Positions 2,909-60,156 of a stretch of 60,302 nt of DNA are shown here, in pieces. The notes beneath the pieces were generated by a model. That model was given only the letters and a program-made list of their open reading frames with translations. It was not told the origin of the DNA and ran no database searches. The stretch lies in assembly GCA_017650795.1 (NCBI GenBank), contig JAGCEE010000275.1, positions 1 to 60,302 on the forward strand, in the 5' to 3' direction. How positions within the stretch are numbered: the stretch's first letter is position 1; each line of letters opens with the position of its first letter. This DNA comes from Clostridia bacterium (GTDB taxonomy: Bacteria; Bacillota; Clostridia; Christensenellales; UBA1242). Both the position numbers and the translations under genes were made by a program.

Positions 2909-3142
2909 AGCATTTCTCCTTTTAATTAAAATTGCTTAAAAGTGGCATTAAACGACTAAACACAACTAGCCAAATTAAACTACCCAAAAGTATACCGATT
3001 TACTAAATAATTGTCAATGATTATTGTGTAAATAACGAATAATGAATAATTGAAGACGATTTAATAAATAGCGGGCAGTGAATGGTTAATTTCATTTGCA
3101 TTTATTATTTTTTTTTAATAAAATATTTACAAAGGACAAAAT

Positions 3143-13092: not shown

Positions 13093-13167
13093 GCCCTTAT
13101 GGTAAAGAGGTTAATACGTCGCCCTCTCACGGCGAAGTCGGCGGTTCGATTCCGCCTAAGGGTACCA
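13093..13167 (+). tRNA. tRNA-Glu, anticodon CUC, with encoded CCA
   Basis: Hand-folded cloverleaf. Acceptor stem GCCCTTA/TAAGGGT (G1:U72). Anticodon stem TCGCC/GGCGA with loop C-T-CTC-A-C. T arm GGCGG-TTCGATT-CCGCC, a 4-nt variable loop and a CCA end. The anticodon arm closely resembles E. coli tRNA-Glu as I recall it. Confidence 0.9.
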
Positions 13168-35751: not shown

Positions 35752-35783
35752 AAAAAAAAAGACTGTACTAAAATATACAATCT
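35752..35783 (-). terminator. Intrinsic terminator downstream of dnaN
   Basis: 8-bp hairpin (35760-35767 with 35776-35783). Its single C:A mismatch on the plus strand becomes a G-U wobble on the minus strand. On the minus strand it is followed by U9 (complement of A-run 35752-35760). Confidence 0.65.
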
Positions 35784-44559: not shown

Positions 44560-44829
44560 CCGTGCCGAAGAATTCGAACAAAATCGGACGATTATACTCG
44601 CAAGTCAAAATACTCCATCAAAGCTACCTTAAATCACACGGCTACTTTACTTAATGTTGCTACCGTCAGGTCCTCACATGGTTCGTAAAGTTATCGTTAA
44701 ATAAGACCTTGATTTCAACGTACCTGCCAAGAAAATATAAAAGCTTATTTACCCTCAGTTCTTCCGTCAGCCTCGCATATAGTAGATTTCGAGTTAAAAG
44801 GAACTACTACCTCCCCACCTAGCACGGTA
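44560..44829 (-). ncRNA. ffs: Signal recognition particle RNA, long (Bacillus-type, Alu-domain-containing) form
   Basis: The minus strand reads CCGTGCTAGGTGGGGAGGTAGTAG... at the 5' end, ...GAACCATGTGAGGACCTGACGGTAGCAACATTAAGT... in domain IV, and ...CTTCGGCACGG at the 3' end pairing with the 5' end. This is colinear with B. subtilis scRNA as I recall it, at about 270 nt. It has its own promoter and terminator. Confidence 0.85.
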
Positions 44830-54062: not shown

Positions 54063-54491
54063 ATGAATAATGAATATAATGATTATTTAATATTGTCACC
54101 GTCCAAAATGGAAGAGGTCGCAAAAAGGTATAATGAAGAAATAAGAAAGAACAGAGCGGAAGAAAATTGTGAATGTAAAATTACCAACGGCGAGTTTTAT
54201 GATGCTTGTGCTCAACTTATTCATACCCTTTTAATATTAAAAAAGTATCTATTACGCAAACGAAAAAAAGATTTAAGAATTGATGCAATAAAAGATGCAA
54301 TAGATATGCTTATGGATATCGATGAGCATATTGATAGAAAAAAAATAAAAATGGTAAAGAATTATAATGAGGCAGTTAGGATTTGTTTTAGCTGTCTTTC
54401 ACTAATGCTAGATATTTCAACAAAAGAGGAAAATAATAAAACAACAAAAATGCTAACACAAATATTTAAATGTTTGATTGTTTTATTGTAG
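54063..54491 (+). CDS. Hypothetical helical protein (142 aa)
   Basis: ORF only; Lys/Glu-rich and predicted helical. No recognisable motif. Confidence 0.5.
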   Translation: MNNEYNDYLILSPSKMEEVAKRYNEEIRKNRAEENCECKITNGEFYDACAQLIHTLLILKKYLLRKRKKDLRIDAIKDAIDMLMDIDEHIDRKKIKMVKNYNEAVRICFSCLSLMLDISTKEENNKTTKMLTQIFKCLIVLL

Positions 54492-54584: not shown

Positions 54585-55058
54585 ATGGAACCAGAACTAG
54601 TAGATTTTGCAGAGCAACCTCAGGAAGTTTATGATAATTTTTATCTTATGTTTTATGATACATTTTTATATTCAAAAGAAAAATATGATGATTTTATAAA
54701 CAAGTTTAATTCACTCCTTGCAAAATATCAAAATAATCCCGATAAGTACGCATTGGTTATTTTGGATTTATCTAGCTTTTTTAAGCAAAGATGTACAAAA
54801 GAAATAGAACGTGAAACTATGCCTGCTTTAATTGATATTTTAAAATATGTTTATACATTGTACAATAAAGATAAAAATATATTTATGAAATGCATAACAT
54901 GTGGTAAAAGAAACTTTTTAAACTACATGAATTTATTAGTAGATCTTAAATGCAGCGAAAACGAGGCCGAAACTTTATCTATAAAAGAAAAAATCAAAAA
55001 AGTAGAACAAGAAATGGCGAATTTTAGAGCCATTGCTTTAAAAGGAAAAATCCAATAA
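54585..55058 (+). CDS. Hypothetical protein (157 aa) with a CxxC pair
   Basis: ORF followed by a strong terminator. AAAGGAGA lies 12 nt upstream. An 18-codon ORF starting at 54578 in another frame sits closer to that RBS. Confidence 0.5.
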   Translation: MEPELVDFAEQPQEVYDNFYLMFYDTFLYSKEKYDDFINKFNSLLAKYQNNPDKYALVILDLSSFFKQRCTKEIERETMPALIDILKYVYTLYNKDKNIFMKCITCGKRNFLNYMNLLVDLKCSENEAETLSIKEKIKKVEQEMANFRAIALKGKIQ

Positions 55059-55072
55059 TTTTTCAAAGTATT

Positions 55073-55110
55073 AAAACTCCGATTGTTAATCAATCGGGGT
55101 TTTATTTTTT
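55073..55110 (+). terminator. Intrinsic terminator
   Basis: 13-bp stem AAAACTCCGATTG-TTAAT-CAATCGGGGTTTT followed by ATTTTTT. Confidence 0.8.
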
Positions 55111-55226: not shown

Positions 55227-56336
55227 ATGGCATACAAGGCACTTTACAGAAAATATAGACCAAAAACATTTGATGATGTTGTGGGCCAAGAGCATATTAC
55301 AACAACACTAAAACACCAAGTCATGACAGGCAACATTGGCCATGCCTATCTTTTTACAGGCAGTCGTGGAACCGGAAAAACTAGCACTGCAAAAATATTT
55401 GCAAAGGCGGTTAATTGTCCAAATTTGGTTAATGGTGAACCATGTAATAATTGCGATATTTGCAAAAGTGTTGATGATGGAAGTAGTGTCGATGTTTTAG
55501 AAATGGATGCCGCTTCAAACAATAGAGTAGACGAAATTAGAGATATAAGAGAAAAGGTTAAATTTTTGCCGGTTGGTGGAAAATATAAAGTATATATTAT
55601 AGATGAAGTTCATATGCTTACCGACCAAGCATTTAATGCACTACTTAAAACACTAGAAGAGCCACCAGAACATGTTATATTTATTTTAGCAACAACCGAG
55701 GCGCATAAACTTCCAGCGACAATACTCTCTCGTTGCATGCGTTTTGATTTTAGGTTAATTGATGTTCCAACGCTTTCAAAACTAATTGGAAACATATTTG
55801 ATAAAGAACAAATAAAATATACAAACGAGGCACTTCGTCTTATTGCACTGGCTGGCGAAGGGAGTTGCCGAGATACAATATCTATTGCAGATTGTGTCGC
55901 ATCATTTAGTCAAAACGATATAACGGTAGAAAGTGCCATGAGGGTTTTGGGTGCAAGCGATACCGAGGTGTTTGTTAAATTATATGATGCCATTGGTAAA
56001 AAGAATATTAAAGACGCTTTTGAAATTTTGCAAAATACATTTGATAGTGGTAAAAACTTAACGGTTTTTGCAAAGAACTGCACGCTTCATGCAAGAAACT
56101 TGCTTGTTATGAAAAATTGTCCCGATAGCGAGGAGATGTCGTCTCTTACTCAAAAAACACAAGACTTATTAAAAACACAAGCAAAAAGTTTTGAAAATAG
56201 CGACCTTATGGAATATATGAAAATCTTTTCGTCAATAGAGGCAGAAATAAAATATGCCCTATCGCCTAAAACTTTAATAGAAACGGCAGTTATAACTGCA
56301 ATAACCAAAGACGATAGTCAAAAAAAAACTAAATAA
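55227..56336 (+). CDS. dnaX: DNA polymerase III subunit gamma/tau, domains I-III only (short product in the zero frame)
   Basis: Walker A GSRGTGKTS, Zn module CNNCDIC, DEVHML, SRC motif (LSRCMRF). RBS AAGGAGAGG. The ORF ends 6 nt after an A9 run (56320-56328). Confidence 0.9.
   Translation: MAYKALYRKYRPKTFDDVVGQEHITTTLKHQVMTGNIGHAYLFTGSRGTGKTSTAKIFAKAVNCPNLVNGEPCNNCDICKSVDDGSSVDVLEMDAASNNRVDEIRDIREKVKFLPVGGKYKVYIIDEVHMLTDQAFNALLKTLEEPPEHVIFILATTEAHKLPATILSRCMRFDFRLIDVPTLSKLIGNIFDKEQIKYTNEALRLIALAGEGSCRDTISIADCVASFSQNDITVESAMRVLGASDTEVFVKLYDAIGKKNIKDAFEILQNTFDSGKNLTVFAKNCTLHARNLLVMKNCPDSEEMSSLTQKTQDLLKTQAKSFENSDLMEYMKIFSSIEAEIKYALSPKTLIETAVITAITKDDSQKKTK
56320..56328 (+). repeat. A9 homopolymer at the dnaX frame junction
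   Basis: Counted directly from the sequence: C-AAAAAAAAA-CT. Confidence 0.9.
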
Positions 56337-56361
56337 TATAAAAAGGGTAAACAATTTAGTT

Positions 56362-56715
56362 GTGACAAACACCAATAATAGTCAAAATATTGCAAAACAA
56401 TCGCCAAGGGATATTTGGGGTAAAGTAATAATATATTTAAGAGAGCATCATGCAGTTGCCCTTCATATAGCCTGTGGCGACATTACAGATGTTGATTTTA
56501 TAGACGATAAGTTTATAATTAGGACGGCGGAAGATTTTATATATCAACTATTAGAAAATGAAGATAATAAAAAAGAATTATATTCTGCATTTAATAGTCT
56601 TGGCATAAAAGATATAGAGATTATTAAAAAAGAAAAAACATTTACAAAAGCTCAAATTGATTTAAAAATATTAAGAGAAAAATTTGGGGATTTGTTAGAA
56701 ATAGAAGGAGAATAA
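56362..56715 (+). CDS. ORF resembling the C-terminal domain of full-length DnaX (tau), in the +1 frame relative to dnaX
   Basis: The frame is open from 56305, through the A9 run. DIWGKVIIYLREHHAVALHIACGD...FIIRTAEDF...ELYSAFNSLGIKDIEII resembles my recollection of the Firmicute DnaX C-terminus. The GTG start has only a weak, distant AGGG. Confidence 0.45.
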   Translation: MTNTNNSQNIAKQSPRDIWGKVIIYLREHHAVALHIACGDITDVDFIDDKFIIRTAEDFIYQLLENEDNKKELYSAFNSLGIKDIEIIKKEKTFTKAQIDLKILREKFGDLLEIEGE

Positions 56716-56716
56716 T

Positions 56717-57049
56717 ATGAACGGATATAGAGGTGGTTTTGGCGGTGGTTTTGGTGGCGCAAATTTGCAAAACCTAATGCGTCAAGCGCAAAAAATGCAA
56801 GAGGATATGCAAAAGAGCAAAGAGGAAATAGAGAATACTGATTTTACTGCAAGCGTTGGTGGAGGAATGGTTAGTGTTGTTATTGGCGGAAATCGACGAG
56901 TAAAAAGAATAGACATAAAACCAGAAGTTGTTGACCCTGATGATATAGAAATGTTAACCGACTTAATTTCTGCCGGCGTAAATGATGCACTTGCTCAAAT
57001 AGAACAAGCCGAAAAAGACAAACTTCCTCAAATGCCGGCGGGGTTTTAA
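56717..57049 (+). CDS. ybaB: Nucleoid-associated protein YbaB/EbfC
   Basis: 110 aa. QAQKMQEDMQK...ASVGGGMVSVVIGGNRRVKRIDIKPEVVDPDD. Conserved dnaX-ybaB-recR order. Confidence 0.9.
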   Translation: MNGYRGGFGGGFGGANLQNLMRQAQKMQEDMQKSKEEIENTDFTASVGGGMVSVVIGGNRRVKRIDIKPEVVDPDDIEMLTDLISAGVNDALAQIEQAEKDKLPQMPAGF

Positions 57050-57052
57050 TAT

Positions 57053-57643
57053 ATGTCAAAATTAGAAAGTTTAGAGCGATTGGTAAATGCATTTAGGTCG
57101 CTTCCGGGTGTAGGTTATAAAACTGCCCAAAGATACGCATACAGCATATTAGCAAAACCAGAAGAAGAAGTAAAAGCATTTTCGGATGCCATGCAAGATG
57201 CAAAACATTTAATTAAGTTTTGTGAAGAATGTGGGAATTTTAGCGAAACAAAAATTTGTGAAAACTGCATGAAAAATTCTGCCGAAGTAATATGCGTTGT
57301 TGCAGAGCCAAAAGATGCAATTATAATGGAAAAACTAAAAAACTTTAATGGTGCGTTGCATGTTCTGCACGGTTGTATTAACCCACTTGAGCATAAATCT
57401 CCAAATGATATTAGAATAAAAGAATTAGTTGCCCGAGTGCAAAAACATAAGACCAAAGAAGTTATTATGGCAACCAATCCAGATGTTGCTGGCGATACCA
57501 CTGCCTATTATATTGCAGAATTATTAAGGCCTCTTGGCGTAAAAGTGACAAGAATTGCTCAGGGTGTTTCTATGGGCACAGATCTTGAATTTGCCGATGA
57601 GGTGACATTAAATAGAGCATTGGAATTAAGAAATGATTTATAA
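57053..57643 (+). CDS. recR: Recombination protein RecR
   Basis: LPGVGYKTAQRYAY (HhH motif), a Cys4 zinc finger (CEECGN...CENC) and a Toprim region (VCVVAEPKD). Confidence 0.95.
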   Translation: MSKLESLERLVNAFRSLPGVGYKTAQRYAYSILAKPEEEVKAFSDAMQDAKHLIKFCEECGNFSETKICENCMKNSAEVICVVAEPKDAIIMEKLKNFNGALHVLHGCINPLEHKSPNDIRIKELVARVQKHKTKEVIMATNPDVAGDTTAYYIAELLRPLGVKVTRIAQGVSMGTDLEFADEVTLNRALELRNDL

Positions 57644-57855: not shown

Positions 57856-60156
57856 TTATTTTTCAAACACTTTTACAACAATAACACTCATATCATCTTT
57901 TGCAACGTTATTAGAGAGCTCTAATGCCTTATTTATTATTTCATCGGCAACAGCTTTTGGTGTTGTTGCGGTTATGTTATTTATAAAATCCGACAAATAT
58001 TCTAGTGAAGGAAAACTATCTGTAATCCCATCTGTCATAATAATAATCTTATCGCCACTACTTAAATAGTTTTGACTGATTTTGCTTTCTGCATTTTGGA
58101 CAATGCCAAGAGGAAGCGAACTTAAATTTACAACTTCTATTGTTTCTTTATGTTTAATAAAGCTTTCTGGCGCACCCATTTTTATAAAATCAGCAAGACC
58201 GCTATTTGTGTCAACTACACAAAGGTCTAATGCACTAAACACATCGTCTTTTCCAATACTTAGTAATTTGTTTACACTAGATAATATTATTTCCCTATCA
58301 AAACCAGCTTTAAAAAAATTTTCAATAAGTCCAATTGCGGTTGAACTCGTCTTTTCTGCAAGAAGTCCACTCCCCATTCCGTCGCACAAAGCAAAAAGGT
58401 ATTTGCCACCTTTAATTTTTATTATCGAATAGCAATCGCCACTTTTGTAAGAGCCTGTTTTTGTTTTTGTTGATACAGCAAAGACAACATCATATTTTGG
58501 AGCCGTTTTTAGTGTTAATAAATCCCAACCTGCACGAGAACTAGCACTTTCGGAAATTACCTCCATTTTTTGATTACATATTTTACTAATTACTTTAACT
58601 ATTCCCCCTCGTTTGCTATCACTTGATCTAACACAAATTGTGACCGACTTTGTATTATCGGCATCATCAAAAACAAGAGCATCCGAGCAAATAATATTGT
58701 TGTAAGTAAGTTCGTCTAAAATCTTTTTTTCTTTTCCTTGCTCAAATTTAACCCCATATGCAACCTCTTGTGATAAATCATGCATTATCTCACTAACTCC
58801 CAAAAATTGTTCTGCCAAAAGAACCCTACTGGCATCAATATTATTAACTAGTCCTGCATAGTTTTTATATTGGTCTACCAAATCGTTTGTTGTGCTTAAT
58901 ATTCCGTTTAATCGTTCACACTTTCCGGCAAAATTGCTAGGAATATCCAAAAGTGTAATCCTGCCTTTATTAAAACCAATTTCAATTATGTTTTTTAATG
59001 AATTGTTTGTGTCTAGGGCTTGAAAATTATGACATTTATTAAATGCAACACAGTTTTTACAATTCTTTAATCGCAGTTCATTCAAAGCCATTTTTTTGGC
59101 ATTGTTTTGGTTTATTCCACTACTTATCATTCCCCTATACACTCTGTTCATTTCACTAAAAACATCAGAGAGTTCATTTAACCTAAACTTCAACATCTCT
59201 CGATTGCGATTTATTACACTTTGTTGTGTCATGCAAGATAAGGTGCTTGTAAAGTCGGTTCCTATTTTATCTAATACTTTGCATGGTATTAAAATATAAA
59301 TAAGGCTAGCCACAATAACCGGGATTACAGAAAAAACCGAAAGGTTTTCTGGATACATTAAATACAAACTTACGGCGCAATCAACGGCAATTATAGAAAT
59401 AATAGATATGTATTTATATTTTGTTTTAAATACACATAGCGATAATCCATAAATAACAAAAAGTGATAAAAATTCCGGGCTGTTTGTCGCAAGCAAACTA
59501 CCCATGCCAAAAGAAAGAGAAACAAGCAAAATTGTTGTAAAGTTTGTGGTATATGAAAGTAATAAAAGCACTAGCACGCCAACAAACTTTATTAAGCTAA
59601 TTTCAAAAAAAACTATTTGGCTAAGGCCTGTTGCGATTGCAGTTGCAAACAAAAAGGCGCAGATTATTTCCAAAACGGTAAACCTTCCACATATTCCTCT
59701 AACACAAAATGCTTCAAATATTTTTATGCATGCCAGCATAAATAATAGTTCCAACACAAATTCGGCGATGCTTGCATAAAGATTATAATTTAAATAGTAT
59801 GTTTGAATAAATACCATTGGCAAATTATAAATAAAGGCATATACGAATAAATGGATATATCTTAATGGTTTTTTAATTTTGTAATGTATAAAATATATAA
59901 AGGCAAATAATGTACACATTATTGTGTTTCCAAGTAGTAAATATGGTGAAAAATTACACAAATAAGAAGCCAATAAAAATGATAAACCAAGCCCAACAAT
60001 ATTTTGATTACACCAAACTAATGCAAAAAATATTCCAATAGAAAATGGGAAAACAATGCCACCAATGTTTGCTAAAAATGACACATAAAAAAGTACAAAA
60101 AAAATAGTAAATTTAAAAACAATATTTAGTTTATTTTTTCTAGATAAAAAATTCAT
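57856..60156 (-). CDS. spoIIE: Stage II sporulation protein E (polytopic membrane PP2C phosphatase)
   Basis: 766 aa with about 10 N-terminal TM helices, a central regulatory region and a C-terminal PP2C/SpoIIE domain (SGDCYS...CDGMGSG...IIMTDGITD...DDMSVIVVKV). Confidence 0.85.
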   Translation of the reverse strand: MNFLSRKNKLNIVFKFTIFFVLFYVSFLANIGGIVFPFSIGIFFALVWCNQNIVGLGLSFLLASYLCNFSPYLLLGNTIMCTLFAFIYFIHYKIKKPLRYIHLFVYAFIYNLPMVFIQTYYLNYNLYASIAEFVLELLFMLACIKIFEAFCVRGICGRFTVLEIICAFLFATAIATGLSQIVFFEISLIKFVGVLVLLLLSYTTNFTTILLVSLSFGMGSLLATNSPEFLSLFVIYGLSLCVFKTKYKYISIISIIAVDCAVSLYLMYPENLSVFSVIPVIVASLIYILIPCKVLDKIGTDFTSTLSCMTQQSVINRNREMLKFRLNELSDVFSEMNRVYRGMISSGINQNNAKKMALNELRLKNCKNCVAFNKCHNFQALDTNNSLKNIIEIGFNKGRITLLDIPSNFAGKCERLNGILSTTNDLVDQYKNYAGLVNNIDASRVLLAEQFLGVSEIMHDLSQEVAYGVKFEQGKEKKILDELTYNNIICSDALVFDDADNTKSVTICVRSSDSKRGGIVKVISKICNQKMEVISESASSRAGWDLLTLKTAPKYDVVFAVSTKTKTGSYKSGDCYSIIKIKGGKYLFALCDGMGSGLLAEKTSSTAIGLIENFFKAGFDREIILSSVNKLLSIGKDDVFSALDLCVVDTNSGLADFIKMGAPESFIKHKETIEVVNLSSLPLGIVQNAESKISQNYLSSGDKIIIMTDGITDSFPSLEYLSDFINNITATTPKAVADEIINKALELSNNVAKDDMSVIVVKVFEK

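Follow-up and report, generated by a model that had tools for sequence, protein, structure and literature searches.

A two-frame dnaX in uncultured Clostridia, whose tau subunit is probably obtained through a change of frame at a conserved poly-A tract

How can a bacterium make the tau subunit of its clamp loader when its dnaX gene, read by standard decoding, ends after the gamma part? This question is raised by the dnaX locus on contig JAGCEE010000275.1 of a Clostridia bacterium, of which positions 1 to 60,302 were analysed as one stretch of 60,302 nucleotides (nt), referred to here as the window. The dnaX frame stops shortly after a run of nine A, and a second open reading frame (ORF), referred to as ORF2, continues in another frame with a sequence resembling the end of tau. 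The locus is probably a two-ORF dnaX from which tau is obtained only by a change of frame at the A tract, with slippage of RNA polymerase as the most likely cause. The elements of the junction are as follows.

55227-56336, forward strand: dnaX ORF1, a gamma-like product of 369 amino acids (aa) with domains I-III only by standard decoding (ORF list, NCBIfam, Pfam).
56305-56336, forward strand: 32-nt overlap of the open dnaX and ORF2 frames, which holds the tract and is bounded by TAA 56302-56304 in the +1 frame and by TAA 56334-56336 in the zero frame.
56320-56328, forward strand: A9 slippery tract, the proposed recoding site, read from the sequence; the same junction is kept in the related loci L001-L027.
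56329-56400, forward strand: variable linker in the ORF2 frame (LNNIKRVNNLVVTNTNNSQNIAKQ), in a frame open from the tract and proposed to be translated solely within a fusion.
56362-56715, forward strand: ORF2 as called mechanically from a GTG start, 117 aa, from the ORF list and annotated in the database as 'hypothetical protein' MBO7527929.1.
56401-56715, forward strand: conserved domain assigned to the C-terminus of tau (SPRDIWGKVIIYLREHHAVALHIACGDITDV...), from family alignment, BLASTP, family profile and an AlphaFold (AF2) model.

The frames at this junction are directly observed. The initial annotation had described a dnaX of 369 aa that crosses A9 at 56320-56328 and stops 6 nt later, at TAA 56334-56336, after domains I-III only, and this description holds. 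The product ends in ...TKDDSQKKTK. It scores 534.7 bits against NCBIfam PRK05563 (cut-off 400; model positions 1-362 of 567) and 449.5 bits against TIGR02397 dnaX_nterm (cut-off 250), and it contains the Pfam domains DNA_pol3_delta2, DNAX_ATPase_lid and DNA_pol3_gamma3; ORF1 is thus above the curated cut-offs for the clamp-loader AAA+ domains I-III of a DnaX. In the +1 frame, the TAA at 56302-56304 is followed by an open stretch that starts at 56305 (PKTIVKKKLNNIKRVNNLVV...) and passes without interruption through A9 (...VKKKLNNIKRVNNLVV) into ORF 56362-56715, also as first described. When the tract was edited in silico, A8 produced a single ORF of 495 aa and A11 a single ORF of 496 aa, matching the tau-like fusion of about 495 aa that had been predicted for one A fewer or two more.

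The mere occurrence of A9 was dropped as a statistical argument, since about two such runs are expected by chance in this AT-rich window (31% GC) and two are observed. The window contains 35 homopolymers of at least 8 nt, and the one in dnaX alone marks the end of one long frame and the opening of another; it is also the sole homopolymer of at least 9 nt inside a long ORF. The remaining 9-nt runs, A9 at 35752-35760 and T9 at 3108-3116, both lie outside long ORFs on either strand, as would be expected if coding sequence other than dnaX avoided such runs.

ORF2 is best read as the C-terminal domain of this lineage's tau, because both BLASTP and a family profile match it to the extreme C-termini of DnaX proteins. 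The resemblance had been noticed in the initial annotation from the sequence pattern. A homology search with ORF2 returned 31 relatives, all of them stand-alone proteins of 79-140 aa with the core SPRxIWGKVIIYLREHHAVALHIACGDITDV...FEIIKKEK...LIIE. The profile of this family was run against 1.84 billion representative proteins and gave 200 matches, of which 150 were listed. Among these 150 there are 149 new clusters, and stand-alone proteins make up 140 of the 149. Eight further clusters are long proteins in which the profile matches the extreme C-terminus. They include P0112 (residues 427-521 of 537), P0160 (397-506 of 507) and the set P0174, P0175 and P0180 (431-530 of 538, 378-483 of 488 and 443-552 of 552), which are DnaX above the NCBIfam cut-off with lengths of 488-552 aa, together with P0049, P0124 and P0153, which are fragments whose best NCBIfam match is likewise DnaX. 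A ninth long match is a protein of 1,334 aa to which the profile aligns in nine internal stretches. By BLASTP, ORF2 matches the C-terminal end of the DnaX P0049 with 38% identity over 103 residues (E=1e-23) and the C-terminal end of the full-length P0160 with 33% identity over 112 residues (E=2e-11).

The homology of ORF2 was therefore recovered by BLASTP and by its own family profile, whereas the curated Pfam and NCBIfam models remained without a match. Scans with these models, using ORF2 alone or as its +1-frame extension, yielded only sub-threshold noise (SigE, VP39), and the Pfam scan of ORF2 gave no match to DNA_pol3_tau_5, which represents domain V of E. coli tau. A sequence search of PDB with the family profile returned nothing relevant. 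The conceptual 496-aa fusion aligns with PRK05563 over residues 2-379, the curated models missing the divergent C-terminus. The AF2 model of the domain has a predicted local distance difference test score (pLDDT) of 84, and its Foldseek hits in PDB were all non-significant, with template modelling (TM) scores of at most 0.5 (DnaA domain I, E=0.017; the C-terminal chains of E. coli tau, 5fku_E, E=0.076, and 2aya, E=0.2). From its position in the protein, the domain may correspond to E. coli domain V and may bind the polymerase. Dozens of database 'proteins' of 52-98 aa (P0035, P0037, P0052, P0099, P0102 and others) are fragments of ORF2 that start inside the conserved domain (MREH..., MACGD...); these starts are artefacts of the gene callers, because ORF2 is without a start codon of its own.

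The comparison of relatives that the initial annotation had proposed found both the A-run and the two-frame layout conserved. Related loci were gathered from genome and metagenome assemblies, 27 in all (L001-L027), two of them contributed by a scan of metagenome contigs. The lineage sampled consists of metagenome-assembled genomes of uncultured gut and rumen Clostridia. The two-ORF loci come from independent projects and assemblers, and their ORF2 identities range from about 40 to 98%. By tract length and frame, the loci are distributed as follows.

A10, ORF2 in the -1 frame: L001-L009, L012-L014, L017-L019 and L024-L026, reading ...CAA AAA AAA AAC and then a stop at once or after 1-3 codons.
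A9, ORF2 in the -1 frame: L010, L011, L015, L021 and L022, reading ...xxA AAA AAA AAC TAA/TGA.
A7, ORF2 in the -1 frame: L020, reading CAA CAA AAA AAC TAA.
A9 contraction, ORF2 in the +1 frame: the window (the same as L023) and L027.
A10 in frame, single ORF: L016.

In the two-ORF loci that retain the junction, the ORF2 frame opens 2-15 nt 5' of the tract, the dnaX frame meets its stop 1-10 nt 3' of it, and the overlap of the dnaX and ORF2 frames (16-37 nt) is always placed around the tract. One added A, or a -1 shift, joins the frames in all of them except the window and L027, and an in-frame tract length was found in none of the approximately 25 related two-ORF loci. The geometry first described, in which A8, A11 or a +1 ribosomal shift restores the fusion, is accurate for the window and is shared only by L027; the rule of the lineage is ORF2 in the -1 frame. 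The protein sequence just 5' of the tract differs widely (ITAVSEVGEGQKKN, LECASFDPLKKN, TAMLGFDVKKN, ISCIMESEKKN, AITKDDSQKK), which makes the tract the best-conserved nucleotide feature of this variable region. In distant clusters, at least 25 stand-alone gene calls have ..KKKLI[DN].. at their start, the ORF2-frame reading of the tract. An out-of-frame tract kept at the gamma/tau boundary in more than 100 sequence clusters is taken to indicate selection, not decay. A DNA-level on/off switch by phase variation was rejected, as the two-ORF loci are without an in-frame allele and tau is expected to be essential.

Two relatives carry an in-frame tract. At L016:600-660 (JGI Ga0172381_10094173; protein P0049) the sequence GTC-A10-TAACTGA is in frame and standard decoding leads to tau, and the other two frames stop at once (A9 gives AAA TAA; A11 gives AAT AAC TGA). 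At L028:1410-1440 (ENA ERZ16268224 scaffold_5360; P0112, 537 aa) an in-frame A8 lies at the domain III/IV boundary (GCC-A8-TATTTCAGTTGA). One added A there leads to a stop after 4 codons, so that L028 may represent another design in which gamma is produced by slippage.

Read in the ORF2 frame, the linker between the tract and the conserved domain is constrained as coding sequence even before any start codon is reached. Linkers of the relatives span 15-125 codons; their frame is never broken and their lengths differ by whole codons. Between L002 and L003 the linker has 27 substitutions, distributed 4/7/16 over the ORF2 codon positions, almost all of them upstream of the first start codon (the first ATG is codon 33/39). 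The codons directly 3' of the tract show synonymous changes only (CTA/TTA, TAC/TAT, ATA/ATT). Six loci (L006, L008, L010, L011, L013, L019) contain no ATG, GTG or TTG from the tract to the conserved domain. Among about 60 candidate starts in other loci, only 4 have a Shine-Dalgarno-like motif 4-12 nt upstream. In the window, no Shine-Dalgarno motif lies 4-12 nt upstream of the GTG at 56362, the closest candidate being a GGG 14 nt away, which agrees with the initial annotation; dnaX and ybaB, in contrast to ORF2, carry Shine-Dalgarno sites of the AAGGAG type. From the six loci without a start codon, the near absence of Shine-Dalgarno motifs and the third-position bias in the linker, it would follow that tau must be produced as a trans-frame fusion.

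In the proposed mechanism, standard decoding would stop a few codons past the poly-A tract and give a gamma-like clamp-loader subunit, of 369 aa in the window. The linker and the tau C-terminal domain, for which binding of the polymerase is presumed from other DnaX proteins, would be reached only in the other frame, which opens just 5' of the tract, and tau (about 495 aa) would come solely from mRNAs or ribosomes whose frame is altered at the tract. Slippage of RNA polymerase (transcriptional realignment) on 9-10 A's would generate mixed mRNAs and thereby both gamma and tau from one gene. At A10, or at A9 in the other phase, the tract of the lineage would lack just one A for the fusion, and its addition would give tau. 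In the window, A9 follows C, and tau would need two more A or one fewer, unless the window, too, really has the A10 of the conspecific strains. That the frame is changed during transcription is favoured with fair confidence; we infer both slippage at this step and its efficiency, and a mixture of transcriptional slippage and ribosomal frameshifting is possible.

The most trivial alternative, raised already in the initial annotation, is that the whole split is a homopolymer error of the assembly and that the true gene is one in-frame dnaX with A8 or A11. Homopolymers are error-prone and a single base gives back one ORF of 495-496 aa; however, the approximately 25 related loci from independent projects and assemblers are all out of frame, and 140 of the 149 representative clusters among the 150 listed matches are stand-alone ORF2 proteins. 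Since the two-ORF loci never show an in-frame length, the split is not a recurrent miscall of an ordinary gene, and this explanation is scarcely credible. Assembly-wide homopolymer errors were rejected as well, as no other run of at least 8 in the window breaks an ORF. It is also very improbable that ORF2 is an independent gene, encoding a free C-terminal domain protein from its own start or through termination-reinitiation, with the A tract representing incidental Lys codons. Gene callers and NCBI do annotate a separate hypothetical protein, an ATG directly precedes the conserved domain in some relatives (MSPRT...), weak Shine-Dalgarno-like motifs occur in L007 and L009, and lysine is preferentially encoded by AAA at 31% GC. 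An independent start is nevertheless difficult to reconcile with six loci that are start-less between tract and domain, with Shine-Dalgarno motifs that are not conserved, and with the many gene calls that begin within the domain (MREHH..., MACGD...) because a start codon is missing. Furthermore, the frame always opens just 5' of the tract, the third-position bias precedes any start, the ORF2-frame reading KKKLI[DN] is kept in distant clusters, and a free C-terminal domain would presumably be unable to tether the polymerase to the clamp loader.

The assembly-error argument retains force on a narrower point, namely whether the A9 of the window is itself a consensus error or a minor variant of a strain that really has A10. 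In that case the strain would have the usual two-ORF layout with its -1 relation, and loss of a single base would have created the '+1 frame' artificially. This reading concerns the tract length only and is compatible with slippage; its probability is put a little short of even, a consensus error and a real A9 allele being judged roughly equal. Four conspecific contigs (L012, L024, L025, L026; 97-98.6% DNA identity) have A10 with identical flanks (gatagtc-A10-ctaaataa), and these strains encode a 368-aa dnaX product (..QKKN) with ORF2 in the -1 frame. The ORF2 of the window is in the +1 frame because its tract is one A shorter than this A10; the -1 relation at the DNA level, found in all two-ORF relatives except L027, is missed in the window by exactly one A. 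All other close relatives likewise have A10, and contraction errors at long homopolymers are a known bias of sequencing and of the polymerase chain reaction. A second A9 contraction with ORF2 in the +1 frame was seen at L027:40-100 (ENA ERZ28614956 scaffold_356), where the gene is called from a GTG upstream of the tract. That this other isolated contraction lies on a contig starting only 65 nt upstream of the tract, with A10 in the sister loci L002 and L014, also counts for an error. On the other hand, the exact 369-aa A9 product is present on 6 contigs (in assemblies from NCBI, ENA and Logan), and over 2.5 kb L023 and the window are 100% identical; different assemblers thus reproduce the call, although they may have worked from the same reads. 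In addition, no other homopolymer of at least 8 in the window breaks an ORF. A further idea, possible but to be held tentatively, is that A9 and A10 are both real. Tau in the clade would then arise only through RNA-polymerase slippage, and heritable one-base changes of the tract (A9, A10, in-frame A10 as in L016) would serve as a dial for the tau:gamma ratio at the evolutionary and population level, with some strains, such as that of the window, relying on the rarer +2 or -1 products.

The frame might instead be changed by the ribosome within the same layout, through a programmed -1 frameshift on A_AAA_AAA or A_AAA_AAC that is aided by the adjacent zero-frame stop; this is considered unlikely. 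In the relatives a stop follows the zero-frame ...AAA AAA AAC immediately or no more than 3 codons later, ORF2 has the -1 relation, and the heptamers A_AAA_AAA and A_AAA_AAC are present in zero-frame phase; the window has no X_XXY_YYZ heptamer in that phase (CAA AAA AAA ACT), its -1 frame is closed and its ORF2 is in the +1 frame. A Shine-Dalgarno-like GGTGAGGGG directly 5' of the tract occurs in many close relatives, and reversed dnaX cases have been described as possibly ribosomal (Atkins et al. 2016, PMC5009743). This motif, however, is confined to one subgroup and is missing from the window, L012, L015 and L021, and a downstream stem-loop is not conserved: RNAalifold on 11 junctions gave a consensus of -0.82 kcal/mol with no 3' helix, so that no conserved RNA structure around the tract was found, neither a frameshift stimulator nor a slippage-promoting hairpin. 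Several features favour polymerase slippage. Seven A's suffice for a -1 shift, whereas the tract is held at 9-10, well beyond the need of a ribosomal heptamer; a homopolymer of about 9 or more A/T in the coding strand, a feature of programmed slippage of the Thermus dnaX type, is present as A9 in the window and A10 in the relatives. The contraction variants (the window and L027) place ORF2 in the +1 frame, beyond the reach of a -1 ribosomal shift. L016 combines an in-frame A10 with stops in both alternative frames, as slippage predicts and as in the Thermus thermophilus design, and L028 has an in-frame A8 at the same site.

Polymerase slippage also has points that weigh against it. The 3' end of the tract is always A AAA AAC followed by a stop or near-stop, a sequence that can equally be read as a classical -1 heptamer. 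At L020:690-715 (ENA ERZ28653917 scaffold_125005) the tract is A7 only, and the two-ORF layout and the A_AAA_AAC heptamer are kept in phase; polymerase slippage should be weak there, and this locus is the sole case that appears to favour ribosomal frameshifting over it. In AT-rich genomes, RNA polymerase may be resistant to slipping on A9 (Baranov et al. 2005, PMC1088944). In the window, addition of one A to A9, the commonest expected slippage product, still gives gamma (...QKKN), and the output of tau would be low unless the tract is really A10. Finally, a second full-length dnaX may exist elsewhere in the genome, which is viewed here through a 60-kb window.

In the surroundings of the locus, the order dnaX, ybaB, recR is canonical, with spoIIE downstream on the opposite strand. 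Because SpoIIE is encoded downstream of recR, the organism is probably a spore-former. Further features of the window are given below.

56717-57049, forward strand: ybaB/ebfC with a strong AAGGAG Shine-Dalgarno site (Pfam YbaB_DNA_bd, E=2e-30).
57053-57643, forward strand: recR (Pfam RecR_HhH, Toprim_4, RecR_C).
57856-60156, reverse strand: SpoIIE, 766 aa (Pfam SpoIIE_N and SpoIIE phosphatase domains).
54063-54491 and 54585-55058, forward strand: two ORFs of 142 aa and 157 aa upstream of dnaX, with no Pfam match.
44560-44827, reverse strand: bacterial large signal recognition particle (SRP) RNA (98.9 bits, at the Rfam gathering threshold).
13093-13164, forward strand: tRNA (at the Rfam gathering threshold).

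At this gathering threshold, Rfam gave no further known RNA families in the window. A hairpin followed by a T-run at about 55078-55110, after the second of the two upstream ORFs, resembles a terminator ahead of the dnaX promoter region.

If the proposal is correct, an essential link between clamp loader and polymerase rests entirely on a non-standard decoding event. Both polarities would occur at the same site within one protein family (the two-ORF loci and the in-frame, Thermus-like L016), and the locus would provide a natural illustration that a single base can swap which subunit is "recoded". These two polarities and the one-base variation of tract length are the added interest of the case. 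There are also consequences for annotation: well over 100 'hypothetical protein' clusters would really be the C-terminus of tau, and the corresponding dnaX genes are labelled "gamma/tau" although their DNA frame encodes the short form only. A pipeline rule that looks for dnaX, A9-10 and an ORF before ybaB would mend these annotations.

One known recoded dnaX is that of E. coli, which uses a -1 programmed ribosomal frameshift at A_AAA_AAG with a Shine-Dalgarno-like 5' stimulator and a 3' stem-loop. The Clostridia loci involve the same gene, a shift at the domain III/IV boundary and a slippery site of lysine codons, and in the relatives the direction is likewise -1. They differ in having no A_AAA_AAG and no conserved 3' stem-loop or Shine-Dalgarno-like element, and in that the shifted product would be tau, not gamma. 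In Thermus thermophilus dnaX, slippage on A9 with mixed mRNAs has been demonstrated (Larsen et al. 2000, as described in PMC1088944 and PMC5009743). An A tract in the sense strand at the gamma/tau boundary is common to both systems, as is the proposed origin of both subunits from one gene, and the relative L016 shares the exact Thermus design with its in-frame A10. The polarity is opposite: in Thermus the DNA frame gives tau and the slipped mRNA gamma, whereas here the DNA frame gives gamma and the slipped mRNA is predicted to give tau. In Blochmannia, a poly-A tract of dnaX carries a frameshift, and transcriptional slippage has been proposed to rescue tau (PMC3017870). The additional one-base contraction of the window could be a tolerated lesion of this type, but the Blochmannia case is a lineage-specific erosion in the tau-only region, whereas the tract described here lies exactly at the gamma/tau boundary and is conserved.

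The closest counterpart is the two-ORF dnaX in which recoding is required for tau, described for 17 genes in 12 genera, each with two adjacent ORFs offset by -1 in the DNA itself (Antonov et al. 2013, NAR 41:6514, PMC3711429). Nine of these cases have A10 and are found in Chlorobium, Pelodictyon, Prosthecochloris, Flavobacterium, Cytophaga, Capnocytophaga and Coraliomargarita (Suppl. Fig. S3, PMC3711429); others have A9, A8 or A7. Transcriptional realignment was predicted for these genes, which are not annotated as recoded (Antonov et al. 2013, PMC3711429), and the reversed polarity was repeated in a later review (Atkins et al. 2016, PMC5009743). The inverted polarity noted in the initial annotation is thus accurate, as standard decoding gives the short form, but it is not new. 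In both groups, the gamma part in ORF1 ends directly after poly-A and ORF2 holds the tau-specific part; the poly-A of 7-10 at the end of ORF1 corresponds to A9 at 56320-56328 in the window, the tract and layout are conserved in the 27 loci, and the relatives of the window agree feature for feature, including ORF2 in the -1 frame. The named published cases belong to Chlorobi, Bacteroidetes (Flavobacterium, Cytophaga, Capnocytophaga) and Verrucomicrobia (Coraliomargarita), whereas those described here come from uncultured gut Clostridia that form a large clade; the tract is followed by C-TAA or C-GAA here and by G-C... in the published cases, and the window differs further by its A9 with ORF2 in the +1 frame. 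No Firmicute or Clostridia two-ORF dnaX was found among the named published genera or in the searchable literature. The layout predicted in 2013 in other phyla is here found in a new lineage, and the case widens that type to Firmicutes/Clostridia without creating a new category.

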